DNA from: Candidatus Multivoradales bacterium
Lineage (GTDB): Bacteria > Acidobacteriota > Thermoanaerobaculia > Multivoradales > Multivoraceae
Direction: 5' to 3'
NCBI GenBank assembly: GCA_965223325.1
Contig: CBDCWI010000002.1
Span: forward strand, 3,488,850-3,552,849
Length of the DNA stretch: 64,000 nt
The notes beneath the pieces were generated by a model. It did not search any database. It was given only the letters and a program-made list of their open reading frames with translations, and was not told the origin of the DNA. Made by a program: the position numbers and the translations under genes. How positions within the stretch are numbered: position 1 is the stretch's first letter; the number at the start of each line of letters is the position of its first letter. Shown piece after piece: positions 1,021-23,555 of this stretch.

Positions 1021-2430
1021 CTAGTCCTCGTCGACGTAGCCGAGGGCTTCGAGCTGCTCGCGGACCTCGTCGGGCATGGTTGCGACATCGCGGAGCTTCG
1101 AAGCCAAGCCGCGGCGCTCCTTTCGCAGTCGATCAATCGTCTCTAGGTGCTCTGCGGCACCAGCAGGTTCCCCGGAGACGAGTTCACCGTTCAAGAGGTT
1201 GTAGGTCGTCTTCGAGCCAACGCGGGTGTCCCACACCACGTGTCGCGGTTCCGGACTGAGGGAGGACACTGCCATCAGGCCGCCGTAGGAGGAGTAGGAA
1301 ACCCTTGTGCCCCCCTGGCGTGATGTCCCATCACAGATCGAACGAACCCCGCACTGTCCATCCCAGGCCTTCTCGGCAGGCACCTCCGCGATCGCCGCCA
1401 GAACGGGCGCGATGTCGACCTGCGGACACAGGCCATCTTCTACAACGCCCGTCGGCTCCCACGAACGGTGATAGAGAAGCGGAACTTTGACCAGTTCTGG
1501 CTCGAGACCTTTTCCGTGCCCCAAGCGACCGTGCTCCAGGAAAAGGTCGCCGTGGTCTCCGGTGACGACAACAACGAAGCGCTCGCTAGAGGTCTCAGCG
1601 AGCTGCACAACCCTTTCGACAAGGGAGTCCACGTAGCGTATCCCCGCATCGTAGAGGTCAACCATGTATTGGAGGTCGGTCTCTGAAACGCGCTCCGGCG
1701 GAACACCGTTGCGATAGCGATCCACCCCCTTCGCACCGACAAACATCTCGCGAAACTCGCGCGGCGGCCAGTAGGGATTGTGTACATCCATGAAGTGGAG
1801 GTACGCGAACCAGGGTCGCTGGGGCGGATCTCGCTGCGTCCAGGCCTCGAAGGCTCGCACGACCGTTTCACCCTTCGCATATGCGATCTTCTTGCGGCGC
1901 CCCTCCTCACGATGGCTGTCGAGCTCCAGCTGGGCAACCTCGAACAGCTCCGGGTAGCCCGAGCCGTCGGCCATGTGAGGGTTCGTCAGCACCGCGAACG
2001 TCTCGTAGCCTGCGCTGGCGAATGCTCCGGGGAGGGTCTCGGAGATCGGGACTAAGGACGAACGCCGCTCGGTGCCTGAGGAGGTGGCGACCACCGGGGG
2101 AGGCGACATACTGGTCAGCAGGGCAGCGGTCGAGAGGAAGGTCTGAGAGCCATGGGAGAGCCCGACGCGACAGCTGACGCTCCGTGAGGCTAGCTGGTCG
2201 AGGAAGGGGCTGACGGGACGCTGATACCCGGCAAACCCGAGGTGGTCGCCACGAAGCGCATCGATATTGATGAGGAGGATGTTCGGGGCCCTCTTCTCGC
2301 CCGTTTCTTCGCCCACTGGGTTCGAAGCAGACGAATGGCCAGCTGGGTCCGGAGAGCACGAGCCGAGCGTGACCGCCGCAGAGACGACCAGGACAACGAG
2401 AATCTCGTGGCATCCGCGGGGAATGGTCAT
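1021..2430 (-). CDS. Sulfatase-family (alkaline-phosphatase superfamily) protein with N-terminal signal peptide; possible lipoprotein. Paralog 1.
   Basis: ORF 1021..2469, probable start at internal ATG 2430 (MTIPRGCHEILVVLVVSAAVTLGSCS...). The metal-site block NILLINIDALRGDHLGFAGY and the rest of the sequence are typical of the sulfatase / phosphotransferase fold. No canonical C-x-P-x-R formylglycine motif was seen. The C-terminal tail is ...EQLEALGYVDED. Confidence 0.7.
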   Translation of the reverse strand: MTIPRGCHEILVVLVVSAAVTLGSCSPDPAGHSSASNPVGEETGEKRAPNILLINIDALRGDHLGFAGYQRPVSPFLDQLASRSVSCRVGLSHGSQTFLSTAALLTSMSPPPVVATSSGTERRSSLVPISETLPGAFASAGYETFAVLTNPHMADGSGYPELFEVAQLELDSHREEGRRKKIAYAKGETVVRAFEAWTQRDPPQRPWFAYLHFMDVHNPYWPPREFREMFVGAKGVDRYRNGVPPERVSETDLQYMVDLYDAGIRYVDSLVERVVQLAETSSERFVVVVTGDHGDLFLEHGRLGHGKGLEPELVKVPLLYHRSWEPTGVVEDGLCPQVDIAPVLAAIAEVPAEKAWDGQCGVRSICDGTSRQGGTRVSYSSYGGLMAVSSLSPEPRHVVWDTRVGSKTTYNLLNGELVSGEPAGAAEHLETIDRLRKERRGLASKLRDVATMPDEVREQLEALGYVDED

Positions 2431-2641
2431 TTGGCTGGGCTCCGGCTCGTTGGTTTCGCAAAGAGGCAAGAACCTAACAGCTCGAAGCTACACGTTCCAA
2501 GCCGAAGCGCCCGAGTCTGAGGAGCCCTGCCAATGGAGTACCGCAGCTGGCAGCACACGGGTACAAACGGAAGGGCCACCCGAGGGTGGCCCTTTCTATT
2601 GCCAGACTTCGCAGTCTCGCGTTCTTCTGGCTAGGCGCTGC

Positions 2642-3289
2642 TCAGGGGCTGAGCGTGCGAAACGACACGAAATCGTCGAAGTAGTGTGAGCCGACCGTAC
2701 CGGCATCCACACTGCTCGCCAAGAGACCGACCTTCACATTCTTGACGCCCTGGGAGGCGGTGGGGATTTCCGTCTGCTCCCGGATGGTCGCATCGTCGAC
2801 CATGATCCGCAGCAGACCATCCGTGGCACCGGCTGACGCTGCCGCGCGGAACTCGATCGTGATCTTGTGGGCCTGGTTCGGCTGCAGGTCGATGACGCCA
2901 GTCTTGCGGCGCTTGGTTCCGCCCGTCGCCTGGTACAGGGCGCGGATGTCGTAGCCGCTGCCGCCAGCCTTGCGGCGGAGCTGAGCCGAAACCACGCGAT
3001 TCCCGTTGTTGGAGTCGTTCGTGGTGCTGAAGATGATGTGACGGGCGCCGATGTCCATCGTCATGTTGTTGACGTTGAACATGAAGGAGGCGGAGTAGAC
3101 CGGCTCCTGGGCCGGGGTGTCGTCCTGGACGAAAGCATTCGTCTGGGATCCGTCTGCGGTTACCTCGAGGCCGAAGTTCCCGGCCATTGCAGCGTTGCCG
3201 TTGACGTCAAGGGACGAGTCCGCAACTGCTGCCCCGGCAAGACAGAGCAGGCCCGAAAGGGCGATGGTCATAGTTCTCTGAAGTTTCAC
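2642..3289 (-). CDS. Secreted hypothetical protein (Asn/Thr/Gly-rich; fold prediction is inference)
   Basis: ORF 2642..3340. AGGAGA lies 6 nt upstream of GTG at 3289, giving VKLQRTMTIALSGLLCLAGAAVA... as a signal peptide. The gene sits 10 bp downstream of the anti-sigma gene on the same strand. I recognised no catalytic motif. Confidence 0.55.
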   Translation of the reverse strand: MKLQRTMTIALSGLLCLAGAAVADSSLDVNGNAAMAGNFGLEVTADGSQTNAFVQDDTPAQEPVYSASFMFNVNNMTMDIGARHIIFSTTNDSNNGNRVVSAQLRRKAGGSGYDIRALYQATGGTKRRKTGVIDLQPNQAHKITIEFRAAASAGATDGLLRIMVDDATIREQTEIPTASQGVKNVKVGLLASSVDAGTVGSHYFDDFVSFRTLSP

Positions 3290-3350
3290 GTTTCTTCTCC
3301 TTTGGGCTTCAGCCCGGGCGGGCCGGGTCCTTGAATCCATTGTTGGGTTG

Positions 3351-3842
3351 TTACTGTTGGGTTGAGTCTTCCGAGATCGTCAGCCGCGCCGCCGGGCCCA
3401 GCTCGCCGTCTTCGAAGTCAAAGGTCGAGAGTGGCACCGCCTCTACTCCTGCAACTGTTGGGTTGGCATCCGGACCCCCTGCCTCTATCAGCGAATCAAA
3501 CGCACCTCCCGCGGCGGCGAGAATGCCTGAGAGTGCGAGCACACAGGCTGCTGCGGCCAGAGGAATTCTGGCCTTGGCCGTCACCTCGGCGGATGGAGCC
3601 ACGGTCGCCAGGTCCCAACTCACGGCTTCGACCAGCTCGCGGCATTCGGCACAGGAAGCAACGTGCCGCTCCACTGATTCAGAAACACATGATTTGCCAT
3701 TTCTTGCGCCGAGTGCGTGCTCGACAAGGGCGTCTGCATCAGGATGCTGGTCGAGCGCCTTGAGCACCTGAGCGAAGGCCGTCTCGGCACCTTGGGGGAC
3801 AGCGTTTGCGGCTTTGTCGAAGTCTAGGGTTGAGTGACTCAT
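3351..3842 (-). CDS. Putative anti-sigma factor (zinc-binding H-x3-C-x2-C motif, single TM helix)
   Basis: HVASCAECREL matches the ZAS-type HxxxCxxC motif. There is one hydrophobic segment IPLAAAACVLALSGILAAAGGAF. The gene lies directly downstream of an ECF sigma gene on the same strand. Confidence 0.55.
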   Translation of the reverse strand: MSHSTLDFDKAANAVPQGAETAFAQVLKALDQHPDADALVEHALGARNGKSCVSESVERHVASCAECRELVEAVSWDLATVAPSAEVTAKARIPLAAAACVLALSGILAAAGGAFDSLIEAGGPDANPTVAGVEAVPLSTFDFEDGELGPAARLTISEDSTQQ

Positions 3843-4010
3843 CTGGGGTTCCTCTGGCCTCGGGCTCCCTGCCCGGTTGCTCTATAGTCGAGCGCCCGTG
3901 GCTTTTGTTACCGACTTTCTTGAGGTGCCCACAAGACGTCCCGATTCTCGGCCTTCCCCGTGCGAGAAGCGTAGCCGCCGGTCGACCCCCCGGTCGTTGC
4001 CGCTCTCAGA

Positions 4011-4559
4011 CTACTTGGCGCCTGGACCCTCTTCAAACAATCGCGCCCGTACCCCGAGGGCAGCCTTCCGACACCGGCTGATTCGCACCCTCAATGCCCC
4101 CTCTTTGATGCCCAGGGCGGCTGCCATCTGCGTGTAGTCCTGACCCAGCGCGACCCGGCGCAGCAGCTCCAGGCACTCGGGCTTCAGCTCCTCCTCCAGC
4201 GCCCGGAGCAGGCGGTCGGTGTCGGCGGCACCGAGTTCTGCGGCTCGAGGGTCCTCGCCCGCGATCTCCGTTGCCTCATCACCAAGGGACTCGCTGGGCC
4301 TGCGACCCCGAAGCCTCACGCGGTCGATGCACTTGTAGTGCGCGATGCGGCGGGCGTAGCTCGCCAAGGTGCTTTCGCCGCGAAAGCGACCCTCTCGAAC
4401 CGCAATCAGTAGGGCCGAAAGGGAGTCCTGCTCGACGTCTTCGAGGTCGCCTGCGGCAAGGCTGTGGGCGGAGAAGGCGACGCGGATGGCTCGCCGTACC
4501 GCCGCGACAACCTCGGCGTCACCGGCGAGGAAGCGCGCGCCGTCGCTCTTCTCGGTCAT
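4011..4559 (-). CDS. ECF-type RNA polymerase sigma factor (sigma-70 regions 2 and 4)
   Basis: ORF 4011..4721. The real start is most likely ATG 4559 (MTEKSDGARFL...), which forms an ATGA overlap with the stop (4558-4556) of the upstream 1080-aa gene. Region 2 is LLIAVREGRFRGESTLASYARRIAHYKCIDRVR. The region-4 HTH is LGQDYTQMAAALGIKEGALRVRISRCRKAL. Confidence 0.8.
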   Translation of the reverse strand: MTEKSDGARFLAGDAEVVAAVRRAIRVAFSAHSLAAGDLEDVEQDSLSALLIAVREGRFRGESTLASYARRIAHYKCIDRVRLRGRRPSESLGDEATEIAGEDPRAAELGAADTDRLLRALEEELKPECLELLRRVALGQDYTQMAAALGIKEGALRVRISRCRKAALGVRARLFEEGPGAK

Positions 4560-7500
4560 GCACTTGCCCGGCCCGCAGCCCTCGACTGCTGTCCGAGGAC
4601 GCGGAGTTCGGAGGCTGCGGCTGCTTCGATGGTGAAGCGGGCAGCGATTCGCTGCCCGCGAGCTGCGAGTAGCTTGCGCAGGTCCCCGTCCTCGACCAGG
4701 CGCTGGAGGGCAGACAGGCAAGCACTCCGATCGGCTGTGTCAACGACCAGAGCGGTGTCGCCATCGATCGCGTACTCACTGGCGCCGCCAGCCTTCGGAA
4801 CGATGACGGCGCAGCCGCAGGCCATCGCCTCGAGGCCAGTGCGGCCGAAAGCCTGGTAGTGCGAAAGGTCGACGAACACGTCGGAGCGTTGCAGGAGCCC
4901 GGCCACGCCCTCCCGTGTCATAACGCCGCATCGTTCGAATGTGCCGTCGGTAGCAGCCTCATAGATCGGGTCATCGACTGGCAAGCCAAACGTCAGAACT
5001 TCTACGCCCGAAGGGTACTCGCGAGCGATCGCGCGAAGTACCTCGAGCGTGCCTTCGGCGTTGCGCCGCGGAGTGCTCGGCCGGAGCATCGCAGCAACAC
5101 GGACCGCTCCGGTGGCTGGCTCGCGGCCCCGGGGGTTGTAGACCGAGTGGTCGATGCTGGGCGTCACCTTGGCCACCGGAACGCCATGCTCCTCGAACAC
5201 CTTGGCGCGAATCCAATCGGTCTTGGCGAACAGCTGCGACCGCGGGACCCGAGAGTAGGACAGCCGCGCCTCGCGCTCGAGATTCGGATCGTGCGCCACG
5301 ATCCTCGGTTCGTAGTCCTGGACGTAGTACCCCAAACCGAGGTCAGGAAAGCTGCGCGACAGCTGCTCGAGGAGCTTGACGGAGGTAAAAATCGTGGCGA
5401 CGGCATGGGTCGCCTGGCGTGCGAGCCGGGCCAACTCATCAATCCCCTGAAAGCCGACGAAAAGGTCCGCCGGAACAGATGGGTAGTTGTCGAGGAACCA
5501 ATGGCGGTGCTGCTTGGGAACCGCGATGCGTGCCGCAGCCCCTAGCGCGCGCATGCCCAGCGCCTCCTGAACGATCGAATGCACGCCGCCGCCGCCGCGA
5601 CTGACCGGAAGAATAAAGAGAACCGACATGGCCTCGGGATCTGGGTCGACACCTGCTCCGGCGATGGGCGCTGCACGATCGATTCGGCCGAGGGCCTCCT
5701 GAATCCGAGCTCGCACCTTCGCCATCTCAGGGTTGTGGCGCATGAACTCGCTCGCCTGCTTGATCACCTCTGCGCCGTGCTTCTCGTCGAAGGCCTGACG
5801 GCTGCTGCTGGCGAGCTCGCGCCGGCGCTCGTGGCTGTAGCTCTTCGATTTGGCGTGGAAGACGAAGACGTCGTCGACCACCGCAAGTTCGAATCCTTCT
5901 GCCCGCGCGCGCAGGCAGTAGTCGTTCTCTTCGCCGTAGCCACGCGGGAAGGACTCTTCGTCGAGCAACCCGATCCGGTCGAGAAGCTCGCGCCGGATCA
6001 TGAAGCAGAAGCCGTTGAGAAACGGCATACGCGGCCGTGCACGGGCCGACGCCCGCTTCACCACGTCGTCCATTCCGTTGACACCGAGACCCTCGGGCAA
6101 CTCGTTGACGGCCCAGTCGCCCGCTTCGTCGAAGCGCTTGGGTACCGACTGGTAGCTCGCCGCGTTCGACAGTGGCCCGACGACGCCCAGCTTGCCGCTC
6201 GAAGCACCGGCTTCCACCATCCGATCGAGCCAGCCGAAAGGCACAACGACGTCGCTGTTGAGCAATACCACCCAGTCGGCCTCGCTCGCTCGCAGGCCAC
6301 GATTAGCGGCCCGGGTGTAGCCGGTGGCCCGGTCGCTTCGCAGCAGTTGGCTCTCGTGCCTGGTTGCAAAACCTCGCAGGTACTCGGCCGTTTCCATGTC
6401 CGAACCGTCATCGACGATATAGAGCGTGTACTGTCGCCGGGTGTTGCGAACCAGCGATTCGAGACAAGCTGTCACATCCTCGAGGGCGTTGTGAACACAT
6501 ACCACGACGTCGACGGTGAGTTCGTCGACCGACCTGGCGCCGGCGATGCTTTCCGGCGCAACTCTGGGCCCGGGAGCAGTGGCTGTAGATGTGGATGTGG
6601 ATGTGGATGTGGATGCGGGCGCCACGCTCAGCGGGCGAAAAAGGCCTTGGACCCGATTGCGAAGGCCCCTGAGCTTCCCGATCAGAAGCCAGCTGCGCGA
6701 CTCGTAGATCGCCCGCAGCTGCTGCTCGAGCCGGCGCTCTTTCCCCTTTCTGCGCTCATAGGCTTTTGAGTACTCGCTCTTCTCGCGACGCACCTTGCGA
6801 AGCGCGCGGGCAGCGAGCCGGTGACGGTCGATGTACTCCTCGAGTTCGCGCTTCTGTCTCTGGAGCTTCTCGTTGGCCGCGGCCAGGGCGGCTCTGAGTT
6901 CGCGCTCGTCCTCTCGGCGGCTGGCAAGCTCGTCGGCCAGCTGTCGCAAGATGCGCCGCATATCGGTATCGCGAACCGCTATCTCCTTGGAGTCGGCCGC
7001 CATCTGCTCGCGCCGCTGCCGTTCGCGCTGACGGCCGATTTCAACCCGAATCCTTTCGGACTCGATGGTTTCGATAATCGCCTCGCGCGTTTCCCTGCTA
7101 TCGAGCCGTTCGGCAAAGGCTGCCAGTGCCGGCGATGTACGAAGGCGCTCCTCGGGCAGGAGGACGGCGAGGCCATGAAGGCCACGCACGACCCGGAACC
7201 GAATGTCGCACTGTGTTCCCGCCAGGAAATCCTCGACCGCGGTGAGGACACCGTTCCTCTCGCCGCCTTCGACTGCCGCGTGGTGAAGGTGACCGTTAAG
7301 ACCGCCGGCATCAACCAGTAAGGGATGGTCCGGGTGCACACCGCGCCGGGCAAAGGGTTGCCTGTCGAGTTCTGGAATGCGGTCGGGCTCGTAGTAGAGG
7401 TCTCGCCGCCCGTAGGGCCAGCCGACGTCATGGAGCAAGACCACCGGAAACGGAACGCCTGCGCGCTGGCTGATCTCGTGCAGAAGGCGAAGCTCGTGAA

Positions 7501-7798
7501 AGACGGTGTACCAGTTGTGGTCTCCGTCGACCAGCGCCACGTCACACGCCGGGAGACCGGGAAGGACGTCGTGGCTCGTGCCTCGGTGAAAAACGAGCGC
7601 CGGGCCCCACTCCTGCTGCCACTCGTCGACGTCGTACTTCGGCAGCGGGTCGATGACGTGCAGCGTTGCGGCGTTCTGGCGGCAGTATCCGAGCAGCTCC
7701 CGCGTTTGCAGACCGCCGTCAGAACCGATTTCAACCAGAACTTTGGGCGACGTCGCCTCGAGCAGCGGCTCGGTGACGGTCTTCCAGAACCTTCTCAT
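4556..7798 (-). CDS. Multidomain glycan synthase with five segments in one chain. Residues ~15-215: class I SAM-dependent (O-)methyltransferase-like domain. Residues ~232-385: coiled coil. Residues 396-406: (ST)n linker. Residues ~428-650: GT2 glycosyltransferase. Residues ~725-1070: GT4 glycosyltransferase. Domain labels rest on motif reading only.
   Basis: Methyltransferase-like N-terminus: VLVEIGSDGG...HVIDP...DVALVDGDH...LLHDVGWPYG. Coiled coil: a heptad-like charged stretch REAIIETIESERIRVEIGRQRERQRREQ...LQRQKRELEEYIDRHRLAARALRKVRREKSEY...LEQQLRAIYESRS. Linker: STSTSTSTSTA. GT2: VVVCVHNALEDV...YIVDDGSD...LLNSDVVV...GFCFMIRRELLDRIG...GEENDYCLRA. GT4: GRTGLEAMACGCAVIV...E-rich C-terminal block. 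The gene lies in the same locus as wzm/wzt. Confidence 0.85.
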   Translation of the reverse strand: MRRFWKTVTEPLLEATSPKVLVEIGSDGGLQTRELLGYCRQNAATLHVIDPLPKYDVDEWQQEWGPALVFHRGTSHDVLPGLPACDVALVDGDHNWYTVFHELRLLHEISQRAGVPFPVVLLHDVGWPYGRRDLYYEPDRIPELDRQPFARRGVHPDHPLLVDAGGLNGHLHHAAVEGGERNGVLTAVEDFLAGTQCDIRFRVVRGLHGLAVLLPEERLRTSPALAAFAERLDSRETREAIIETIESERIRVEIGRQRERQRREQMAADSKEIAVRDTDMRRILRQLADELASRREDERELRAALAAANEKLQRQKRELEEYIDRHRLAARALRKVRREKSEYSKAYERRKGKERRLEQQLRAIYESRSWLLIGKLRGLRNRVQGLFRPLSVAPASTSTSTSTSTATAPGPRVAPESIAGARSVDELTVDVVVCVHNALEDVTACLESLVRNTRRQYTLYIVDDGSDMETAEYLRGFATRHESQLLRSDRATGYTRAANRGLRASEADWVVLLNSDVVVPFGWLDRMVEAGASSGKLGVVGPLSNAASYQSVPKRFDEAGDWAVNELPEGLGVNGMDDVVKRASARARPRMPFLNGFCFMIRRELLDRIGLLDEESFPRGYGEENDYCLRARAEGFELAVVDDVFVFHAKSKSYSHERRRELASSSRQAFDEKHGAEVIKQASEFMRHNPEMAKVRARIQEALGRIDRAAPIAGAGVDPDPEAMSVLFILPVSRGGGGVHSIVQEALGMRALGAAARIAVPKQHRHWFLDNYPSVPADLFVGFQGIDELARLARQATHAVATIFTSVKLLEQLSRSFPDLGLGYYVQDYEPRIVAHDPNLEREARLSYSRVPRSQLFAKTDWIRAKVFEEHGVPVAKVTPSIDHSVYNPRGREPATGAVRVAAMLRPSTPRRNAEGTLEVLRAIAREYPSGVEVLTFGLPVDDPIYEAATDGTFERCGVMTREGVAGLLQRSDVFVDLSHYQAFGRTGLEAMACGCAVIVPKAGGASEYAIDGDTALVVDTADRSACLSALQRLVEDGDLRKLLAARGQRIAARFTIEAAAASELRVLGQQSRAAGRASA
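6585..6614. repeat. Hexanucleotide microsatellite (GTGGAT)n, about 4-5 units. It lies inside the synthase gene and encodes the (ST)n linker.
   Basis: Plus strand reads gtagat gtggat gtggat gtggat gtggat. The minus-strand reading ACATCC repeats gives TSTSTS. The repeat is in frame, since 6 is a multiple of 3. Confidence 0.85.
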
Positions 7799-7807
7799 GC
7801 CACGGTT

Positions 7808-9265
7808 CTACTCGACATAGCCGAGCGCCTCGAGTTCGCGGCGCTCCTCTTCGGAGTAGTCGCGTCCTGTATTGTCGCGGACCGTCACCGACGGCTTCCC
7901 CATTTCTTGATGGATGAACGCGAGGTCGCGCTTGAAAGCTGTTTCGAGATCTTGATCCCCTCCGGGGAGTCCCAGTAGTTGCTGACCATCCATGTGCGCC
8001 AGTTGTGAGGCATGGGGAACCTCATACTGGAAAATCACTTGCCGATCCTCGCGCAGCAGCGTGACTCCCGAAACCCAGGTCGGGTCGTGCCGAACATGCT
8101 CGGAGATCGCGAAAGGGGGATCTCCGTTGTCAGGGGTCGGTGGAGCCAGGAAGAGAGCCGTTTGGTCGACACCGTCGAGACCATCCGGAACTTCTATGTC
8201 GGCAAGGGTTCCGAGGGTGGGGAACAGATCGATCTGCTCGATGATGGTCTCCTCGAATCGCGGCCCGGCGCCCATGTTTCGAGCCCGAAGCGCCACGGGC
8301 AAGCGCACGACCAGGGGTATGCGCACGACTTCTTGGTGAAGTGAATGGCCGTGCGCCCAGCCACCGCGGTCATAGAGCTCTTCGCCGTGATCGGCCGTCA
8401 CGATGATCAGAAAGTCGTCGAACTGCCCGGCGTCCCGCAACGTTTCGAAGAGGTGCGCAACATGGTCACCGTCGAAATAGGCGAGTTCTGTGTCATAAAG
8501 CGCCCGCGCCTCTTCAATGTCAGCGGGAGTGAGATCGCTCCGCTTCTTGTAGGTGAGCACGCTGAAGTCGACCGTGCTGTCGGTCGTCGGAAAACGGTCC
8601 CGGTAATGCGCGGCCTTGCCCTTCTTGATCACGTAAGGGTCGTGCGGCCCGATGAAGTGAACGTAAGCGAAAACCTTGTCGGCTTCGTCGAGGTCGCTGA
8701 ACCACTTTCGAAAGTGGCGTGCCGCTGGCTTGAGGCGGCCGTAGACTTCGAACCCTCGGCCGAAGCCTTGTTGTTCCGAGATGTGCGAGTTTTCGACAAA
8801 GCCAGCGGTCCTCCAGCCCGCATCTGTGAACGCCTGGCCAAGGCTCGGCACGTCGCTCGGAAAGCTCACCGTGCGCTCCTCTTTCGTGCCATCAGGAAGC
8901 ACCATGTGCCGGCCGACGGTGACGCCGTGGTGGCGCGGGTAGAGCCCCGAAAAAAGCGAAGCGACCGAGGGCTTGGTCCAGTTCGCCTGGGCAAATGCGC
9001 GCGTAAAGACGACTCCCTCGGCTGCCAACGCGTCGATTGTCGGAGTGGTTGGCCGCGGATAGCCATACACGCCGAAGTGATCTGGCCGCGCGCAGTCGAT
9101 CGACACCAGGAGGATTTTCTCGACCGGGCTCTCGATTTGGGCAGCCGGCTCTACCATCCCCCGCCCTTCTCCCGCAGGCGGCGCCGGCGAGCAGGCCAGC
9201 GGGAGCGAGGCCATCGCAACCAACAGGCCAGTGGACCGCGGGCGGCTGAAGAAGCGGGGGATCAC
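7808..9265 (-). CDS. Sulfatase-family (alkaline-phosphatase superfamily) protein with N-terminal signal peptide. Paralog 2.
   Basis: GTG start at 9265 gives MIPRFFSRPRSTGLLVAMASLPLACS. The block KILLVSIDCARPDHFGVYGYPRPTTPTIDALAAEG is sulfatase-fold like. Overall architecture and length match paralog 1. The C-terminal tail ...RELEALGYVE is nearly identical to paralog 1. Confidence 0.7.
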   Translation of the reverse strand: MIPRFFSRPRSTGLLVAMASLPLACSPAPPAGEGRGMVEPAAQIESPVEKILLVSIDCARPDHFGVYGYPRPTTPTIDALAAEGVVFTRAFAQANWTKPSVASLFSGLYPRHHGVTVGRHMVLPDGTKEERTVSFPSDVPSLGQAFTDAGWRTAGFVENSHISEQQGFGRGFEVYGRLKPAARHFRKWFSDLDEADKVFAYVHFIGPHDPYVIKKGKAAHYRDRFPTTDSTVDFSVLTYKKRSDLTPADIEEARALYDTELAYFDGDHVAHLFETLRDAGQFDDFLIIVTADHGEELYDRGGWAHGHSLHQEVVRIPLVVRLPVALRARNMGAGPRFEETIIEQIDLFPTLGTLADIEVPDGLDGVDQTALFLAPPTPDNGDPPFAISEHVRHDPTWVSGVTLLREDRQVIFQYEVPHASQLAHMDGQQLLGLPGGDQDLETAFKRDLAFIHQEMGKPSVTVRDNTGRDYSEEERRELEALGYVE

Positions 9266-9348
9266 GGGGGTCCTATCGGGACGTTTGCCCGATGCATTGG
9301 GGGCGTCTTGACGGATTCTGGATGGAAGCAGCAGGGCCAGGACTGTGG

Positions 9349-10665
9349 CTAGCCAGCCGAAAGCAAGGAAAAATACTGCGCCGCCATGCTAGCGCAGTCC
9401 TCCAGTTCGATGCGCTGAACTCGCTCGACGCCAGTCAGCCACTTCTCCCGATTGCCAACAAGCGACTTGATCTGTGCAAGCACATCCTCAGGAGCCGTTG
9501 GGGATACCGTCCACCCTCCGCCGGTTTCGATGATGCGTTCACCGACCGCCCCACGATCACTGGCGAGCACGGGGACGCCGAGGGCTAAGACTTCTGTCAG
9601 TGTGTGGCTCCAGGTTTCGGACCAGATGGGGAGAAGAATCGCCAGGCTGGGCTGAATCCGCTCCACCAGCCCGGGAAGTTCTGTCGGCGCATAGGGCCCG
9701 TGCTCCACCATAACGCCATGGGCGGCGTAGCGGCTGAGCTCTTCACAGTGCGGGCCGAGGTGGTGAAGAACCAGCTTCGGGCCGCCGCGCAGGCTTTCCT
9801 CTAGAACCGCCGCCAACTCGTTGCTGCCCTTGTGTCGATCGAGCTTCCCTAGGGTCACGATCCGGATGGTCTCGCCCGCTACCGGTGGCGCCGCGAGATC
9901 GTGGCGCTCGAGATCGCGGCCATGCGGAATCCGGTGGATACGATCGGCGAGCGACGGCAGGCTGCGGGCAAGAATCTCTTGCGACGACCATGAGGTCACA
10001 ACAACCGCCGAAACCTGCGCGAGGGCTTCCTCTACTTCCTGGACCCACTGTGCCCGGTAGCCCGACTTGAGAACCGGCAACCCTTCGAGCCAGGGCACCG
10101 GAAGTTGGCACTGGCCTCGCCCTTCGGTGCACTGACCACCGCAATCCCTGGCCTGGTCGTCGAGCAATACGAAGCTCGGACACACCAGATAGTGGTCGTG
10201 GGCCGACACGACGACGCGCACCCCGCGCTCGGCGCACAGGTCGAGCAGGTCGAAGGTGTGCGCGAGCAGGTGCCTGAGGTGCACCGCGTTGGGCCTTGTG
10301 GCATCGAGAACCCCACGGTAGAGCTCGCGAAAATCGGCGCGGCGATGGTCCGTCGCCTGCCAGGGTCGTCGATGGTGGAAGGCTCGATCAACCGCGCGAC
10401 CCTTACTGTCGGAGCCTTCGAGGACCATGCGAAAGGGGTCGGCCCGCAACACTGAAGCGTCGAGTCTCGTTCCCAGTGCGGCCAACAGGTCGCGGCTGGT
10501 TCTGTCGACCCCACCCGGCGCATCGTGGAGAACGGTGAGCACGCGCAGCGCATCCTTCTCGGCCCCAACCATCTGTGGCCGGAAATCGCGCTCTCGGCCA
10601 AGGAGCGTCTCGCGCAGCCTGCGCGCAAAGCGGTGCCGGCGACTTCCCCAGGCGAGCAGGTCCAC
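9349..10665 (-). CDS. GT4-family (group 1) glycosyltransferase
   Basis: LRVLTVLHDAPGGVDR N-terminus. GT4-type C-terminal half (...LGPHCEELSRYAAHGVMVEHGPYAPTELPGLV..., E-x7-E-like region). The start may instead be ATG 10572 (MVGAEKDALRVLTVL). Confidence 0.75.
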   Translation of the reverse strand: MDLLAWGSRRHRFARRLRETLLGRERDFRPQMVGAEKDALRVLTVLHDAPGGVDRTSRDLLAALGTRLDASVLRADPFRMVLEGSDSKGRAVDRAFHHRRPWQATDHRRADFRELYRGVLDATRPNAVHLRHLLAHTFDLLDLCAERGVRVVVSAHDHYLVCPSFVLLDDQARDCGGQCTEGRGQCQLPVPWLEGLPVLKSGYRAQWVQEVEEALAQVSAVVVTSWSSQEILARSLPSLADRIHRIPHGRDLERHDLAAPPVAGETIRIVTLGKLDRHKGSNELAAVLEESLRGGPKLVLHHLGPHCEELSRYAAHGVMVEHGPYAPTELPGLVERIQPSLAILLPIWSETWSHTLTEVLALGVPVLASDRGAVGERIIETGGGWTVSPTAPEDVLAQIKSLVGNREKWLTGVERVQRIELEDCASMAAQYFSLLSAG

Positions 10666-10666
10666 G

Positions 10667-11512
10667 CTAGTGCCCGGAGAGTTGGGTCTGAAGGTGGGCG
10701 CGCAGCCCTGCGAGGGGGTCGGCTTCGAGGAACTGCGAGACGCTTCCCAGGTAGTCCGGGTGCCGCACTTTCAGGACCCTCAGGCCGCGCCACAACAACC
10801 AGCGCTTCTTCCAACCGATCGAGCGCGACCCATGGTGGAAGACATAGACCGAGTCAGCGAGGACATGACGCATCCCGAGCGCGGTCGCTCGCACGCAGAA
10901 ATCGTTCTCTTCGCCCGCACCCTCCGGAAACGCCTTCTCGTCAAAGCTACCCACTGCCGCGAGCGCCGCTCGGCGCACGAAGAGACAGAAGCCGTGGCCG
11001 GTGGGGACTTCGGGAGAAAGCCCTGGGCTCCACTTCGCCACCAACGCCGCCATGCGCGCGTCGTCTATCGAAATGTTCGGAGCCGGCCCGTCGTAGGGCA
11101 CCGAAAAGGGGCCGGCGTTGTTCGACAGCGGGGTGACGGTAGCGATCTTCGGATCGGTCGCAGCCACCGCAACGATTCCGGCCAGCCACCCCTTCGTTAC
11201 CCGAGTGTCGCTGTTGAGCAGCACCACATCGCGGTCGCGAGCGAGGGCGCATCCTGCATTGATGGTGGCGGTATAGCCACGCCGCTGCGGATGAATGTGG
11301 AGCGCCCAGCCTGGGTTGCGGCGCCTGGCTTCTTCGAGTTGTGGTCGCGTCGAGTCATCGCGGCTCGCATCGTCGATGAGAAGAACCTGCTCGCCCTCGG
11401 CATGGCGTTCGAGCGCAGCGATACACTCCGCCACAACCCCCGGGGCGCCGTGGACTGGTACGACCACCGTCGTGTTGGCTACAGATGGGCTGCCTGATGA
11501 ATCTGAGGGCAT
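10667..11512 (-). CDS. GT2-family glycosyltransferase
   Basis: ORF 10667..11941. I trimmed the start to ATG 11512 (MPSDSSGSPSVANTTVVVPVHGAP...) because the longer N-terminus overlaps wzm and is low-complexity. GT2 motifs: LLIDDASRD, LLNSDTRV, GHGFCLFVRRAAL, EENDFCVRA. Confidence 0.7.
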   Translation of the reverse strand: MPSDSSGSPSVANTTVVVPVHGAPGVVAECIAALERHAEGEQVLLIDDASRDDSTRPQLEEARRRNPGWALHIHPQRRGYTATINAGCALARDRDVVLLNSDTRVTKGWLAGIVAVAATDPKIATVTPLSNNAGPFSVPYDGPAPNISIDDARMAALVAKWSPGLSPEVPTGHGFCLFVRRAALAAVGSFDEKAFPEGAGEENDFCVRATALGMRHVLADSVYVFHHGSRSIGWKKRWLLWRGLRVLKVRHPDYLGSVSQFLEADPLAGLRAHLQTQLSGH

Positions 11513-11515
11513 GGA

Positions 11516-12274
11516 GTGCGCCGCCTCACCGACCTGATCCTCTACAAGACCTACGCTGACCTGAAGTCGGAGTCCGAGCGGACCTACGTCGGTTTCCTGT
11601 GGTGGGCTATCGAACCGGTCATCGCGATGGCGGTGTACTACGTGGTCTTCGAGCTGGTCTTCCAGCGCGACGTGCCCAACTATGTCACCTTCCTTTTCGT
11701 GGGTCTGGTGCCGTGGCGCTGGTTCAACACCAGCGTGATGCGCGGGGCGAATTCGATCATCGGCGCGCGGGGCCTGATCCAGCAGGTTTACGTGCCGAAG
11801 GTGGTCTTCCCGCTGACCAACTTCGTCGTCGACACCATCAAGTTCCTCGTCGTTCTCCTCTTGGTGTTGATCGTCGTTCGCGTCGGCGACTTTCCCATCG
11901 GTGCGCCGTACCTCGCGTTTCCCGTGTTGCTTCTGGTCCAAGGATTGTTTGTTGTGTCGCTAACCCTCCTCATCGCCGCAGTCGCTCCCTTTCTTCCAGA
12001 CGTTCGGATCGTGATCGAGAACGTCATGCGGCTCCTTTTCTTCCTCTCCGGCGTCTTCTACGACATCGGCGACATGTCCCCCCGCATGCAGGCCTGGTTT
12101 CGAATCAACCCGATGACGACCATCATCGAGGCTTACCGCGACATCCTCATGCACGACGAATGGCCGGCTTTCGGAGCGCTGGCTGTCATCACCGTCTTGT
12201 CGCTCATGATTCTGGCGCTTGCTGTCTGGCTGCTCCGGCGGCTCGACTTCGCCTACGCCAAGATCGCCCTCTAG
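11516..12274 (+). CDS. wzm: ABC-2 type polysaccharide export permease (Wzm-like)
   Basis: LILYKTYADLKSESERTYVGFLWWAIEPVIAMAVYYVVF matches the conserved Wzm N-terminal block. About six hydrophobic segments. GTG start. The ATP-binding partner follows immediately. Confidence 0.8.
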   Translation: MRRLTDLILYKTYADLKSESERTYVGFLWWAIEPVIAMAVYYVVFELVFQRDVPNYVTFLFVGLVPWRWFNTSVMRGANSIIGARGLIQQVYVPKVVFPLTNFVVDTIKFLVVLLLVLIVVRVGDFPIGAPYLAFPVLLLVQGLFVVSLTLLIAAVAPFLPDVRIVIENVMRLLFFLSGVFYDIGDMSPRMQAWFRINPMTTIIEAYRDILMHDEWPAFGALAVITVLSLMILALAVWLLRRLDFAYAKIAL

Positions 12275-12290
12275 AGTGTCTGAATCCGTC

Positions 12291-13097
12291 ATGCCTGACA
12301 CCGAACTCAATGCGGACAGGGACTCCCCGGCGCCCGTGGTCGGCGAAACCCCTCACGGGCGGCCCATCCTGTCGCTCGAAGAAGTTGGCGTGTCGTATCG
12401 CCGCCGGCGGGGGCTCTTTTCGCGCCCGACCGATCTGTGGGCAGTGCGCTCAGTAACGATGGACATCTACGAAGGCGAAACCGTTGGCGTGATCGGCCGC
12501 AACGGTGCGGGCAAGAGCACTCTTCTCAAGGTGCTCGCCGGGATCATCAAGCCTGACCGCGGACACCTCGAGGTCCACACAGACCATCGGGTGTCCCTGT
12601 TGTCACTCCAGGTGGGTTTCTTGCAGTACCTGTCGGGGCGCGAGAACGTCTATCTGAGCGGTCTCCTGCTCGGTATGACCCGCCGCGAGCTCGACGCCAA
12701 GATCGACGACATCATCGCCTTCGCAGAGCTCGATCAGTTCATCGATGAACCGATTGGCACTTACTCGGCGGGCATGCGCGCGCGGCTCGGGTTCTCGACC
12801 GCCTTTCACGTCGATCCCGAGATCCTCCTGGTCGATGAGGTGCTGGGCGTCGGAGACGCCGAGTTCGTCGCCAAGTCACAAGCCGTTATGCGCGAGCGCA
12901 TCCGGTCCGATAAGACGGTGGTTCTGGTCTCGCACAGCGCCGCCTCGATCCGCGAGCTTTGCGATCGCGCCGTGTGGATCGACAAGGGGCGCTCTATGGC
13001 TTCTGGCCCAACCGAAGACGTTCTCGTCGCCTACATCGAGTCAACCAAGAAGGCCAAGACCAAGCCACCCGAAGAAGAAACCAAAGAACCGGGCTAG
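12291..13097 (+). CDS. wzt: ABC transporter ATP-binding protein (Wzt/KpsT-like; short form without C-terminal carbohydrate-binding domain)
   Basis: ATG 12291 (MPDTELNAD...) lies 17 nt after the wzm stop. Walker A GRNGAGKST, signature YSAGMRARLGF, Walker B ILLVDE. Only 268 aa, so there is no room for a C-terminal carbohydrate-binding module. Confidence 0.85.
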   Translation: MPDTELNADRDSPAPVVGETPHGRPILSLEEVGVSYRRRRGLFSRPTDLWAVRSVTMDIYEGETVGVIGRNGAGKSTLLKVLAGIIKPDRGHLEVHTDHRVSLLSLQVGFLQYLSGRENVYLSGLLLGMTRRELDAKIDDIIAFAELDQFIDEPIGTYSAGMRARLGFSTAFHVDPEILLVDEVLGVGDAEFVAKSQAVMRERIRSDKTVVLVSHSAASIRELCDRAVWIDKGRSMASGPTEDVLVAYIESTKKAKTKPPEEETKEPG

Positions 13098-13108
13098 AGG
13101 GTTGGGCA

Positions 13109-14128
13109 ATGCCTCGAAGTGAACGAGCGCCCGCGGCCGGCTGGACGATCGTCATCCCAACCCACGACACCCGAGAGCTCACCCTCGCGTGTCTCACAAG
13201 GGTTATGGAGGAAGCGCCTCAGGCGACCGTCGTCGTTGTCGACGATGGCAGTCGCGACGGCACGAGCGAAGCGATCGCGGTGGATTTTCCTTCTGCCCTG
13301 GTGCTGCGCAACGAAGAGGCACTTGGCTACACCGGTGCGGTGAACCGGGCGCTCGAGGGCGCCGCGGGTGACTACGTTCTGCTCCTGAATTCGGACGCCG
13401 TGCTGCTTTCTGGTTCGCTCGCCGCCGCTGCCGATGCCTTCGCGCGCGATCCTCGGCTGGGGATCATCGGCGCAGCACTCGAGAATGCCGATGGCAGCCC
13501 ACAGTGGAGCGGCGGCCGGAAGCCGTCAGCGCTGTGGCTATTCGCCCTCGCCTCTGGCCTAGCGAAGCGCCTTGGGCAGAGCGGGCTCTACCGAAGGCTT
13601 CGGCCGCCCGGCGGTTGGAAGCGTGAGGCTGTTCCTGGGGCCGATAAAACGGCGCCTGTCGACTGGGTCTCCGGGGCGGCGATGGCGATTCGCCAGCCGG
13701 TGCTCACGGCGCTTGGACCCCTTCCCGATGTCTACCGGTTCTTCTGCCAGGACCTCGAATACTGCCTTCGGGCCGGGGTCTCTGGTTGGCGTGTGGCCCT
13801 GGTGCCAGCGTTTCGCGTACGCCACCACCTCGGCGCCAGCTCGGTCGCCGAGCTCGCCTCGGATGGCGGTCTGACTGGCGAGCCTGATGAGGATGCTCTG
13901 CGCTTTTCGATCCTCCTCGAAGACCTGGTTCGCTTCTCTGGTCGTGACCTCGGAGGCCCCGGCCCGCAGCAGGCGCAGCGCGCGCTGGCCGCCGGCCTGC
14001 GTTTACGCGGGCTGCTCGAGGTGTTCTTGGGGCCGACTCCGGGGTTCGAGAACGCGGAACTGGATGTCATCGACCTGGCGTGGCGCCTCCGAACCATTGC
14101 CGAGAACGGCGCCGCGACAGGGAGCTGA
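13109..14128 (+). CDS. GT2-family glycosyltransferase
   Basis: ATG 13109 (MPRSERAPAAGWTIVIPTHD...). Motifs VVVVDDGSRDGT, LLLNSDAVL and a DxD-like region. Confidence 0.75.
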   Translation: MPRSERAPAAGWTIVIPTHDTRELTLACLTRVMEEAPQATVVVVDDGSRDGTSEAIAVDFPSALVLRNEEALGYTGAVNRALEGAAGDYVLLLNSDAVLLSGSLAAAADAFARDPRLGIIGAALENADGSPQWSGGRKPSALWLFALASGLAKRLGQSGLYRRLRPPGGWKREAVPGADKTAPVDWVSGAAMAIRQPVLTALGPLPDVYRFFCQDLEYCLRAGVSGWRVALVPAFRVRHHLGASSVAELASDGGLTGEPDEDALRFSILLEDLVRFSGRDLGGPGPQQAQRALAAGLRLRGLLEVFLGPTPGFENAELDVIDLAWRLRTIAENGAATGS

Positions 14129-14225
14129 CAGACGCCCCAGAGGCCTCTCAAGGTGGGCCTCGGCCGGAGAGCGGCCGGTCGCCTTCGGCTAGAATACATA
14201 TGGGAACGCGCGCCCGCGGCAATTC

Positions 14226-15248
14226 GTGAGGCGCCTCATTGTGATGACTTCGCGTCCCCTTAGGACTCTGCCGAATCTCATGGATCTGCGCCAGGCACCC
14301 ATCTTCAGCCACTTCAGCCGCGAGCACATCGTGGTCCTGGGCAAATGCGGTACCCGGCGGCGCTATGCCGCCGGCGAACGCCTCCTGCCTGCTGAAGACG
14401 GAACCGTTATGGCGCACGTGATCTTGCGCGGGCGCGTACGCTTTCACCGCGAAACGCCCTACGGGCCCTTCGAGCTCACCACCATTGGGGCGGGAAACAT
14501 GGTCGGCGAGATCGCCTTTCTCGACCCCACGATGATGTCGCTCGACGTCAGCGCCGAGACTGACGTCGACTGCCTGGTTCTCGACACGGCCAAGGTTCAA
14601 GAAGAAATGAAGAACGACAAGTTCTTCGACGTCGCCGTCTACTGGACGGCCTGGAAGAGCCTGTCGCTCAAGCTCCGCGACACCAACGCCAAACTGATGC
14701 GCTTCTTCTCGATCGGAGGTCCGATTCCCGAAGAAGAAAAAACGCCCCAGGATCTCTCCGGCGAATTCCGCATCGATATCGAAGCCAAGCGTGCGGTCTT
14801 CCGCGAGCAGAAACTCTCCAACATGGAGATCAACTTCCTTGCGTCGCTTTCGAAGGCGCGGCGGTTAGCGCCCAACGAGGTCATCTTTCGCGAGGGCGAC
14901 CCCGGCGACCGCATGTACCTGGTCGTCGACGGCCGCGTGATGATCAGCAAGGACATCCCGGGCGCCGGTGAAGAAGCCTTGGCGTTTCTCGAGCGTGGTG
15001 AGATCCTCGGCGAGATGGCGTTGATCGACGACGCCCCGCGTTCGGCCGACGCCAAGGCCGACGAGAACGGCGCCATTGTTCTCTCTGTACGCAAAGAGGT
15101 CCTCGAGAAGCTTCTCAACATCGAGAAGGTCTCCTCGTCGCGCCTGCTGCGCGTCTTGTGCCTCTTGATCTCGCGTCGCTTGCGTGACGCGCACGAGAAA
15201 ATCGTCGGCTGGTACATCCTCTCCGGCGGCACCCACGCCTCCGCCTAA
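14226..15248 (+). CDS. Protein with two tandem cyclic-nucleotide-binding (CAP/CRP-like effector) domains and no recognisable output domain
   Basis: Domain 1 contains GNMVGEIAFLDP. Domain 2 contains FREGDPGDRMYLVVDGRVMI...GEILGEMALIDDAPRSADAKA. No HTH or enzymatic motif is visible. Alternative starts at 14244 and 14280. Confidence 0.7.
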   Translation: MRRLIVMTSRPLRTLPNLMDLRQAPIFSHFSREHIVVLGKCGTRRRYAAGERLLPAEDGTVMAHVILRGRVRFHRETPYGPFELTTIGAGNMVGEIAFLDPTMMSLDVSAETDVDCLVLDTAKVQEEMKNDKFFDVAVYWTAWKSLSLKLRDTNAKLMRFFSIGGPIPEEEKTPQDLSGEFRIDIEAKRAVFREQKLSNMEINFLASLSKARRLAPNEVIFREGDPGDRMYLVVDGRVMISKDIPGAGEEALAFLERGEILGEMALIDDAPRSADAKADENGAIVLSVRKEVLEKLLNIEKVSSSRLLRVLCLLISRRLRDAHEKIVGWYILSGGTHASA

Positions 15249-15280
15249 GAGGTCTGCGGCGCGCATTCAGACGCCAACAC

Positions 15281-16504
15281 TTAGCGGCTCAAATCTTGGC
15301 GGCTCAGATCTACTGGCTTGGGCCCAACGGCGGCAGCGGCCGCGAGACACTTACCGACCATCGCAGCAAGCGGAAGCGAAGCGAGGTCTTCTTCGCTCGC
15401 CCAAACGGCCTCGTAGGGAACCTCGGCGACATCAGATCCTCCCGTCGTCCTGTCGGCAGACCACACCGCGGTGCATATCTCGTAAGTGATCTTGTGATTG
15501 GTGATCGAGTGCCGGGCTTCTGGTAGCCGCCGTATCGTCTCGCTACCTTCGGAGCGCCCTACGGCGCAGAAGCTGAACTTGCCGCCAACCCGACGTGCGA
15601 GGCGTTCGGCTGTTTCCTCGCTCGGCCAGAGACGTTCGGCCGCGACCTCAACGTTGGGCAGCTCCCACATCCCCGCTGCGACGCCCTTCTGACGGCCCCC
15701 GCGAGCCGCCCGTTCCCGCGCTAGCAGGTACCGGCCGCTCTTGTCACGCACCAGAGCCACAACGCGACGCACGAGTTTGGGTTCCGCGCGCTGTGGGCGT
15801 AGCGGATACTGGTCCACCGCCCCGATCTCGAAGGCGCGGCAGTCCTCCTTCAGCGGACATCGCCCGCAACGCGCCTTCTTCGGCCGGCAGATGGTCGCCC
15901 CGAGCTCCATCATCGCCTGCACGCTGTCGCCAGAACGTTTCCGGTCCAGAAGCCCGGTCGCCACCTCCTCGATGACGCGGCGACCGACCGCGCGCTTGGG
16001 GTTCTCATCGAGCGCCACCAGTCGTGCGATGACACGCTCTACGTTCCCGTCGATCGCAGCGACTGGTTCGTTCCAGCAGATGCTGGCGACGGCAGCAGCG
16101 GTGTACGCACCGACGCCCGGCAGCTCGCGCAATACCGCAACGCTACGAGGAAAACCGCCGCGCGCCACCAACTCACGCGCCGCTGCATGAAGCATTCGCG
16201 CTCGACGGTAGTAGCCGAGGCCCGACCACTCCGTCAGCACGTCGTCTTCAGTTGCCGTCGCCAGCGCGGCGGGATCGGGAAAGCGCTTCATGAACGATTC
16301 GAAGCGTTCGATCACGACTTCGACGCGCGTTTGTTGGAGCATCACTTCGGATACAAGAACCGGCCATGGTTCTCGCGACGCGCGCCACGGAAGTTCGCGT
16401 TGGTGCTTCAGGTACCAAGTGAGAAGCTTGGCGCTACTAGCGTCGACTCGCTTGTTCAAACCCGTCGATACTCCTCGCAACGTGATCTCTGACGGTCGTG
16501 ACAA
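15281..16504 (-). CDS. mutY: A/G-specific adenine DNA glycosylase
   Basis: LTWYLKHQRELPWRASREPWPVLVSEVMLQQTRVEVVIERFESFMKRFP...LGYYRRARMLHAAAR aligns closely with the MutY N-terminus. There is a HhH-GPD region, a 4Fe-4S Cys cluster C-x6-C-x2-C-x5-C (ICRPKKARCGRCPLKEDC), and a NUDIX-like C-terminal domain. There is no ATG at the 5' end, so the exact TTG or GTG start is uncertain. Confidence 0.85.
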   Translation of the reverse strand: MSRPSEITLRGVSTGLNKRVDASSAKLLTWYLKHQRELPWRASREPWPVLVSEVMLQQTRVEVVIERFESFMKRFPDPAALATATEDDVLTEWSGLGYYRRARMLHAAARELVARGGFPRSVAVLRELPGVGAYTAAAVASICWNEPVAAIDGNVERVIARLVALDENPKRAVGRRVIEEVATGLLDRKRSGDSVQAMMELGATICRPKKARCGRCPLKEDCRAFEIGAVDQYPLRPQRAEPKLVRRVVALVRDKSGRYLLARERAARGGRQKGVAAGMWELPNVEVAAERLWPSEETAERLARRVGGKFSFCAVGRSEGSETIRRLPEARHSITNHKITYEICTAVWSADRTTGGSDVAEVPYEAVWASEEDLASLPLAAMVGKCLAAAAAVGPKPVDLSRQDLSR

Positions 16505-16725
16505 GTCGACCCGCGGCCATCCTTGCGCACCCGCAAACTTTTTTTTGCTGACTCGGATCGCGTAAGTTTCCGTGCTGCGTCACCTTACGCCGAACGACAA
16601 GTGCACCTGGGATAATTTCTCTCTTCAAGACGTTCCCACGCCGTGCATCGCGTGGTATGTTGCCCCTCCTTCGCGGCGCATCCATTGATTCAGTTTGGGG
16701 AGTCGGTAGGTAACCGACAAAATCG

Positions 16726-16758: not shown

Positions 16759-16774
16759 GACAGGTGGGGTGTAC

Positions 16775-20732: not shown

Positions 20733-20747
20733 CAAGCACTTAAACCC

Positions 20748-20933: not shown

Positions 20934-23555
<2,622 letters not shown>

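Follow-up and report, generated by a model that had tools for sequence, protein, structure and literature searches.

WsaE of Geobacillus stearothermophilus NRS 2004/3a combines an N-terminal capping 2-O-methyltransferase and two rhamnosyltransferase domains in one chain, and its gene lies directly after wzm-wzt in a Wzm/Wzt pathway (PMC2943079, PMC3898925). The ORF6 protein of Klebsiella pneumoniae O7, which has been dissected experimentally, has its methyltransferase(-kinase) at the N-terminus, then a coiled coil, and at the C-terminus two modules of glycosyltransferase (GT) family GT2 (Kelly et al. 2024, PMC11231755). WbbB of K. pneumoniae O12 and Raoultella terrigena holds a terminator, a coiled-coil ruler and a two-module polymerase in one chain (PMC11231755), and the ruler of WbdD measures ~200 Å (PMC5082667). 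Proteins made of a terminator and a coiled coil occur widely, with polymerase modules distributed in various ways and the terminator always at the distal end; all characterised terminated systems have a carbohydrate-binding module (CBM; Wzt_C) on Wzt (PMC11231755). Here we describe a 1080-amino-acid (aa) protein encoded in a stretch of 64,000 nucleotides of contig CBDCWI010000002.1 from Candidatus Multivoradales bacterium (hereafter, the window). A methyltransferase domain, a long helix, a GT2 module and a GT4 module follow one another in this single chain, which we think likely to be a terminator-spacer-polymerase.

Domain architecture of the 1080-aa protein

According to the list of open reading frames (ORFs) and its translation, the gene is an ATG-started single ORF at 4556..7798 on the minus strand. 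The plus-strand translation of the same interval contains many stops and is non-coding, and the plus-strand ORFs inside it (e.g. 5579-6769) are antisense ORFs as usually found in DNA of 64% G+C. AlphaFold2, run on a 75-sequence alignment, gave a model with a mean predicted local distance difference test (pLDDT) score of 86.9 and five segments, namely a Rossmann-type domain, a helix, a disordered stretch, a GT-A fold and a GT-B fold. A single ORF with five segments had been proposed for this interval in a preliminary description of the DNA; Pfam and AlphaFold2 bear out both the ORF and its segments, and the strand is now corrected to minus. The methyltransferase, GT2 and GT4 assignments made there hold as well, each of the three domains being above its Pfam gathering score. 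The NCBIfam scan of the protein gave similarity to named glycosyltransferases below threshold only.

A fusion of this kind might be produced by an assembly error or a frameshift that joins separate genes, and the presence of a hexanucleotide repeat at a domain junction could be taken as a sign of such an artefact. However, slippage within this repeat keeps the reading frame because the unit is 6 nt long. The independently assembled sister strain L081 has the same continuous ORF (78% identity) without the repeat, and the chain is colinear in dozens of distant homologues. Since the same single ORF is present in the sister strain and is colinear in homologues of other phyla, we regard the fusion as genuine and the artefact as ruled out for all practical purposes.

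The N-terminal segment (residues 1-231; 7106..7798, minus strand) is a class I S-adenosylmethionine (SAM)-dependent COMT-like O-methyltransferase domain and a putative non-reducing-end cap enzyme. The Pfam family Methyltransf_24 matches residues 22-124 with 41.9 bits against a gathering cut-off of 26.3 (E = 2e-10), and the model shows a Rossmann-type methyltransferase fold with pLDDT >90 for residues 1-231. The motifs EIGSDGG (residues 23-29) and VALVDGDH (residues 87-94), which had been noticed earlier, were both located in the translation. Across 75 fused and 36 stand-alone homologues, E23-x-G25-x3-G29, D50, D91-G-D93-H-N95 and D124 are invariant or almost invariant, and these conserved motifs stand directly after strands E20-24, E45-49, E87-90 and E119-123, respectively, which are strands 1, 2, 4 and 5 of the model. 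By analogy, these would be the places of residues that bind SAM and metal. A SAM-binding fold, as had been suggested for this domain, is therefore supported by the placement of the motifs after these four strands, together with the Methyltransf_24 match and the Rossmann-type fold. A profile of the domain retrieved no relative among PDB sequences. In addition, Pfam gave no match to a kinase family in the 1080-aa protein, and between residues 231 and 235 the model leaves no folded domain unassigned.

Searched alone, the methyltransferase domain retrieves 5297 clusters, many of them stand-alone proteins of 260-400 aa with a helical tail. Two of these stand-alone proteins were examined in their genomic context, and both belong to glycan loci with many sulfotransferases, methyltransferases and GTs. 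No structure has been solved and no representative named for this N-terminal methyltransferase family, which comprises >5000 sequence clusters at 90% identity.

Two putative polymerase GT modules with invariant catalytic-type residues occupy the C-terminal part of the same chain. The first (residues 425-710; 5669..6526, minus strand) has a GT-A fold and belongs to the inverting family GT2, with a Glycos_transf_2 match at residues 431-609 (75.5 bits, 6e-21). Its matches among PDB sequences include the GT-A domains of chondroitin synthase and ppGalNAc-transferase, and its D464, S466 and N514-S515-D516 are invariant in the 75 homologues. The second module (residues 722-1075; 4574..5635, minus strand) has a GT-B fold and belongs to the retaining family GT4. 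Glycos_transf_1 matches residues 962-1049 (56.5 bits, 3e-15) and Glyco_trans_1_4 residues 917-1037 (50.3 bits), the joint span being 917-1061, and there is also a weak match to WsaF_C. Foldseek superposes this module on MshA, BshA and PimA with template-modelling (TM) scores of 0.72-0.80 normalised to target, and E990, G1004, G1005 and E1008 are invariant in the 75 homologues.

Between the methyltransferase and the GT modules, residues 235-365 (6704..7096, minus strand) form one unbroken helix of 131 residues according to DSSP on the model (pLDDT 72-88), which we regard as a putative coiled-coil spacer or ruler. At ~1.5 Å per residue its span is ~195 Å, or ~19-20 nm, and its length is identical in both sister strains. 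The preliminary description had proposed an uninterrupted helix of ~150 residues with a heptad pattern; the continuity is confirmed in the model, the length is reduced to 131 residues, and the heptad signal is partial. Namely, a hydrophobic 3.5-residue periodicity is significant over residues 270-340 (reached by 0.35% of shuffles), marginal over residues 232-392 (2.5% of shuffles) and absent over residues 232-300. The helix is 50% charged and 22% large hydrophobic, has a net charge of +10, and contains 19 i/i+4 pairs of opposite charge. Because the heptad periodicity is only partial, a coiled coil in this region is plausible but not established, and a stable single alpha-helix of the ER/K type is possible instead.

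The helix leads into a low-confidence linker (residues 366-424; 6527..6703, minus strand) that carries an S-R-S-W-basic motif and an (ST)n hinge. The model is disordered over residues 362-420 (pLDDT <50), and this stretch holds the (ST)n run that had been described before. The run (~residues 395-407) is encoded by a (TCCACA)-type hexanucleotide tandem repeat of 6.2 copies at 6579-6615. It is missing from the 78%-identical L081 protein and appears, from the comparison of the two sequences, to be strain-specific.

At the foot of the helix (residues 367-378, ~6665-6700) we observed an S-x-(R/S)-W-(R/K/L)-x-G motif, which reads SRSWLLIGKLRG here and SRRWRLG or SSRRWRF elsewhere. The S-x-(R/S)-W-basic form of the motif recurs at the helix end in 23 of the 75 fused homologues and in some of the stand-alone methyltransferase-tail proteins, and it sometimes occurs twice in relatives with long linkers. 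A role for this segment as a membrane-binding amphipathic helix like that of WbdD was considered and is unsupported (hydrophobic moment 0.1-0.47, pLDDT <50).

Distribution of the architecture and exchange of its heads

The architecture had been presented as an unrecognised one. Our search for homologues of the whole architecture shows that it is common. It scored 8000 candidates, of which 973 proteins reached E ≤ 1e-5. Almost all of the top 120 combine PF13578, PF00535 and PF00534 in 1030-1800 aa; their sources are cyanobacteria, Solirubrobacterales and Hyphomonadaceae as well as many metagenomes, and their names, where given, are generic ones such as ‘glycosyltransferase’ or ‘O-antigen biosynthesis protein’. 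Relatives of the GT2-GT4 core were found in at least 598 loci (one genome per species), which span Firmicutes, Actinobacteria, Chloroflexi, Proteobacteria, Verrucomicrobia, Planctomycetes, Acidobacteria, Bacteroidetes and a lineage of the candidate phyla radiation. This is a very abundant multi-phylum family that databases label only as ‘glycosyltransferase’ and that appears to have no characterised member.

The L-numbered loci and the counts of heads and of Wzm given below refer to the best 80 of these at least 598 species-representative loci; L081 stands apart from this set, and the source genome of the window is not among the 80. The GT2-GT4 pair is present in all 80 loci, and the methyltransferase head described here in 14 of them. 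By identity of the GT2-GT4 part, the closest among the best 80 are L014 (a Chloroflexi metagenome-assembled genome, MAG; 51%) and L010 (a Phycisphaerae MAG; 49%). Other loci join the same core, through a long helical linker, to another N-terminal head, namely Sulfotransfer_3 in L017, L018 and L023, PS_pyruv_trans in L021 and L048, Methyltransf_23/11/12 in L058, and a different Methyltransf_24 domain in L075. This exchange raises the possibility that chains are terminated by sulfate or pyruvate.

In the fused homologues, the conserved anchors of the methyltransferase and of GT2 are separated by 160 to 573 residues, with a median of 233. Since the catalytic domains are conserved while the segment between them varies in length, we favour a spacer role for it; a spacer that sets length would be expected to vary in this way. 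Terminator-ruler-polymerase machines follow just this modular logic, in which the end-modifying head can be exchanged and the helix varies in length while the polymerase stays constant.

Two of the related loci have further peculiarities in their transporters. In L018, whose polymerase bears a sulfotransferase head, a Wzt-type ABC ATPase gene (14551-16134, plus strand) encodes a C-terminal Sulfotransfer_3 domain in place of Wzt_C. L001 (Acetatifactor), with a full-architecture orthologue, has two wzm/wzt pairs, at 1347-3453 (minus strand) and 7926-9497 (plus strand); one Wzt has Wzt_C, and the other is short and encoded immediately upstream of the orthologue.

Locus context and proposed mechanism

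The earlier placement of the protein in a Wzm/Wzt locus is borne out by ABC2_membrane and ABC_tran genes that are transcribed divergently from it, 3.7 kb upstream. The Wzm-type ABC-2 permease gene (11516..12274, plus strand; ABC2_membrane 1.2e-14) is followed by a gene for a Wzt-type ABC ATPase of ~268 aa that has the nucleotide-binding domain only (12291..13097, plus strand; ABC_tran 4.6e-22). The ORF of the latter extends over 12219-13097, and its start at ~12291 is inferred from the translation. Downstream of wzt lies a stand-alone GT2 gene (13109..14128, plus strand; Glycos_transf_2 4e-19), a candidate adaptor or branch transferase, and beyond it on the same divergent side a gene for a cyclic nucleotide monophosphate (cNMP)-binding protein. 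The minus-strand operon begins with another stand-alone GT2 gene (10667..11512; Glycos_transf_2 1e-15), continues with a stand-alone GT4 gene (9349..10665; Glyco_transf_4 and Glycos_transf_1) and a sulfatase-family gene, and has the 1080-aa gene as its last member. The true start of the minus-strand GT2 gene is near 11512, as indicated by the translation and by the 281-aa gene call in L081, and the longer ORF is an artefact. The permease, the GT2 gene downstream of wzt and the GT4 gene are kept in L081.

L081 is an independent metagenomic contig with a 100% identical DnaN protein and the same gene order, and it carries the wzm-wzt-GT cluster together with a homologue of the 1080-aa gene. The divergence between the two strains is very uneven across the compared region (4047-19272). 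DNA identity is 96-100% in the housekeeping flanks and the first GT2 gene, 86-94% in wzm/wzt, 74% at the 3' end of the GT4 gene, and 77.6% overall in the 1080-aa gene (range 69-82%, with 69% in the linker region). At the protein level, the 78% overall identity is made up of 83% for the methyltransferase, 76% for the helix, 80% for GT2 and 81% for GT4. This mosaic looks like recombinational replacement of a part of the glycan locus. With 77.6% identity in the 1080-aa gene against 96-100% in the flanks, the pattern is typical of strain-variable surface-glycan loci, and the gene lies in a recombination-prone segment, as expected for a surface-polysaccharide determinant.

Based on the folds, their arrangement and the gene context, we consider it on balance likely that the protein is a terminator-spacer-polymerase, in which GT2 and GT4 polymerise, the methyltransferase caps, the helix biases chain length, and the product is exported through a Wzm/Wzt transporter that lacks the CBM. 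[quoted passage not shown] The inverting GT2 and the retaining GT4 would alternate in extending a chain of repeat units at its non-reducing end, until extension is stopped by the metal-dependent, SAM-using O-methyltransferase, which would add a methyl group to one hydroxyl of the terminal sugar. The 131-residue helix, which may oligomerise as a coiled coil, would keep the methyltransferase away from the polymerase, such that only sufficiently long chains could reach it and a modal chain length would result. The disordered hinge, rich in S, T and P, may allow the polymerase modules to move relative to the spacer. We infer capping rather than decoration, as well as oligomerisation, ruler function, processivity and sugar identities. 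A capping methyltransferase held off a two-module polymerase by a helix was also the core of the preliminary description, and it stands as the best-supported reading without the novelty attached to it.

Several observations weigh against this reading. The cap-recognition domain Wzt_C was found by Pfam neither in Wzt, where ABC_tran is the sole relevant match, nor elsewhere in the cluster. It was likewise not found in the Wzt of L081 or in the Wzt adjoining the L001 and L009 orthologues, all of which are as short as the one here. In control Wzt proteins of L001, L054 and L075, the last of which has the different Methyltransf_24 head, the domain was readily detected. The window holds no initiating phosphoglycosyltransferase, no ligase and no sugar-nucleotide genes that we could find, save one NTP_transferase gene 22 kb away. 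A Wzm is detectable within 10 kb in 24 of the 80 loci and in two of the 14 that have this methyltransferase head. The coiled-coil signal is weak, with a significant heptad pattern for residues 270-340 only in a helix half of whose residues are charged, and the coiled coil is unproven, the model being a monomer that is blind to oligomerisation. Finally, no membrane anchor was found in the protein, the S-R-S-W segment having the low hydrophobic moment given above.

Some of these observations are what would be expected if the methyltransferase decorated internal or all repeats, as happens in methylated polysaccharides, with the helix as an oligomerisation or scaffold element and the length set, as in Wzm/Wzt systems without a CBM, by the coupling of synthesis to export. 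Such decoration would agree with the missing Wzt_C in this Wzt, in L081 and beside the Firmicute orthologues, and with the partial heptad signal. It would also agree with MeT1, which is among the structural neighbours of the N-terminal domain and methylates polysaccharide along its length. [quoted passage not shown] On the other hand, decoration has no obvious need for a ~20-nm separation by a conserved, length-variable helix, and the replacement of the head by sulfo- and pyruvyl-transferases on the same polymerase fits an end-blocking chemistry. Furthermore, every characterised protein that joins a modifying enzyme, a coiled coil and GTs is a terminator (PMC11231755). We therefore judge decoration to be unlikely, though with a chance large enough to be kept in mind.

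The scarcity of transporter genes bears on another alternative, in which the GT modules would add a defined oligosaccharide (as an adaptor or on a glycolipid or protein glycan) and the proximity of Wzm/Wzt would be incidental. Most of the related loci have no Wzm within 10 kb, including those of Solirubrobacterales orthologues with the full architecture, and no initiating transferase or ligase was found in the window. However, the Wzm-Wzt-GT cluster is kept together with this gene in L081, and wzm-wzt directly precede the Firmicute orthologues in L001 and L009, as they do in wzm-wzt-wsaE (PMC2943079). The three additional stand-alone GTs of the cluster could also serve adaptor steps. A non-polymerising role for the GT modules, or one outside the ABC pathway, seems quite improbable.

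For the terminator-spacer-polymerase, export is probably not gated by the cap as it is in characterised systems, because Wzt has no cap-binding module. From this a wider proposition can be drawn, which we rate as possible but rather doubtful: that the Methyltransf_24/helix/GT2-GT4 family exerts cap-and-ruler control without a CBM on Wzt, with termination uncoupled from the quality control of export, on a chassis that swaps methyl-, sulfo- and pyruvyl-heads. If this is true, sulfate and pyruvate ketals may be natural chain terminators, a function for which we know of no experimental demonstration.

Regarding the rest of the gene neighbourhood, the sulfatase-family gene of the minus-strand operon (7808-9265; alkaline-phosphatase superfamily by Pfam) was considered as a part of the system and rejected. 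Because it is absent from the otherwise syntenic L081 locus, we interpret it as a strain-specific insertion. Its product is without the C/S-x-P-x-R formylglycine motif and has a lipoprotein-type signal (…LPLACSP…). The starts of the minus-strand GT2 gene and wzm appear to be only ~3 nt apart (~11512-11516), also in the L081 gene calls, which would leave no intergenic space for two promoters. Downstream of the 1080-aa gene, three minus-strand genes (2642-4721) encode an extracytoplasmic function (ECF)-type sigma factor, a 163-aa protein and a 232-aa secreted protein, in the same order as in L081. The ORF of the sigma factor overlaps the 1080-aa gene by 166 nt, its true start being later. The 163-aa protein has a hydrophobic segment and a cluster of Cys residues resembling a zinc finger, and is possibly an anti-sigma factor; the secreted protein has no family match. 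Sulfatase genes and an ECF sigma factor would also be in keeping with a bacterium of the PVC group.

At a greater distance, mutY lies on the opposite strand upstream of a row of dnaA-dnaN-recF-gyrB-gyrA (16643-26367), and the window therefore belongs to the region of the chromosomal replication origin. Over its 64 kb, no rRNA, tRNA or Rfam elements were found. On the plus strand at 31544-36619, ~0.9 kb separates a gene for a type III polyketide synthase (chalcone/stilbene synthase-like) from two adjacent downstream genes, which encode an AMP-binding enzyme and a flavin adenine dinucleotide (FAD)-dependent monooxygenase. These genes may form a small secondary-metabolite or alkylresorcinol-type cluster.

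Comparison with characterised systems

The fusion had been put forward as a distinct, unrecognised solution to chain-length control, and this view finds no support in light of the WsaE and K. pneumoniae O7 ORF6 precedents and the wide distribution of the architecture. Among specialists in the assembly of bacterial glycans this design principle counts as established, and the window raises no new question about it. Its value is rather a practical one. A compact protein with a CBM-less transporter would make a convenient model for ruler-based length control without export gating. It could reveal how methyl, sulfate and pyruvate cap chemistries pair with one polymerase core, and combinable caps would be useful in the glyco-engineering of polymers of defined length.

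By published description, the protein resembles WsaE in having an N-terminal O-methyltransferase and two GT domains in one chain. In gene order, wzm-wzt-wsaE is similar to L001 and L009, the loci of the Firmicute orthologues, and WsaF, to whose C-terminal family (WsaF_C) the GT4 module here has its weak match, is the partner enzyme of WsaE. In contrast, WsaE builds the glycan of an S-layer protein (an L-rhamnan), and a ruler role of a coiled coil is not reported for it.

ORF6 of K. pneumoniae O7, likewise compared by description, has its methyltransferase, coiled coil and two GT modules in the order in which methyltransferase, helix and GT modules follow one another here, and also belongs to a Wzm/Wzt locus. 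It differs in its extra kinase domain, which is missing here, its Ig-like CBM and its methyl-phosphate cap. Its methyltransferase resembles CgnL/WbdD, whereas the one described here is of the COMT type (Methyltransf_24). The ORF6 polymerase pairs two GT2 modules (rhamnosyltransferases) and is assisted by a separate ribofuranosyltransferase, whereas GT2 is paired with GT4 here.

The similarity to WbbB consists in the single polypeptide with an N-terminal terminator (a putative one here) and a C-terminal polymerase. [quoted passage not shown] Its polymerase modules belong to GT102 and GT103 and its Wzt has the CBM, as opposed to GT2 and GT4 with a CBM-less Wzt. A search of PDB sequences gave no WbbB relative for the 1080-aa protein.

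WbdD/WbdA of Escherichia coli O9a and K. pneumoniae O3 (PMC3482155, PMC5082667) share with it a methyl-type cap, a putative one here, and a spacer of similar length (~200 Å against ~195 Å here). WbdD is, however, separate from the polymerase, a format that is mirrored by the stand-alone proteins with a methyltransferase head and a helical tail. WbdD is further set apart by its kinase domain, a methyltransferase of another subfamily, its trimeric coil and the region at its C-terminus that binds the membrane, and the Wzt of its system carries the CBM that is missing here.

Altogether, the 1080-aa protein is a further combination within the recognised terminator-ruler-polymerase kind. Its real departures are the unstudied methyltransferase family without a kinase, the GT2 and GT4 pair, the S-x-(R/S)-W-basic motif, and a Wzt without Wzt_C, unlike the Wzt proteins of the characterised terminated systems (PMC11231755).

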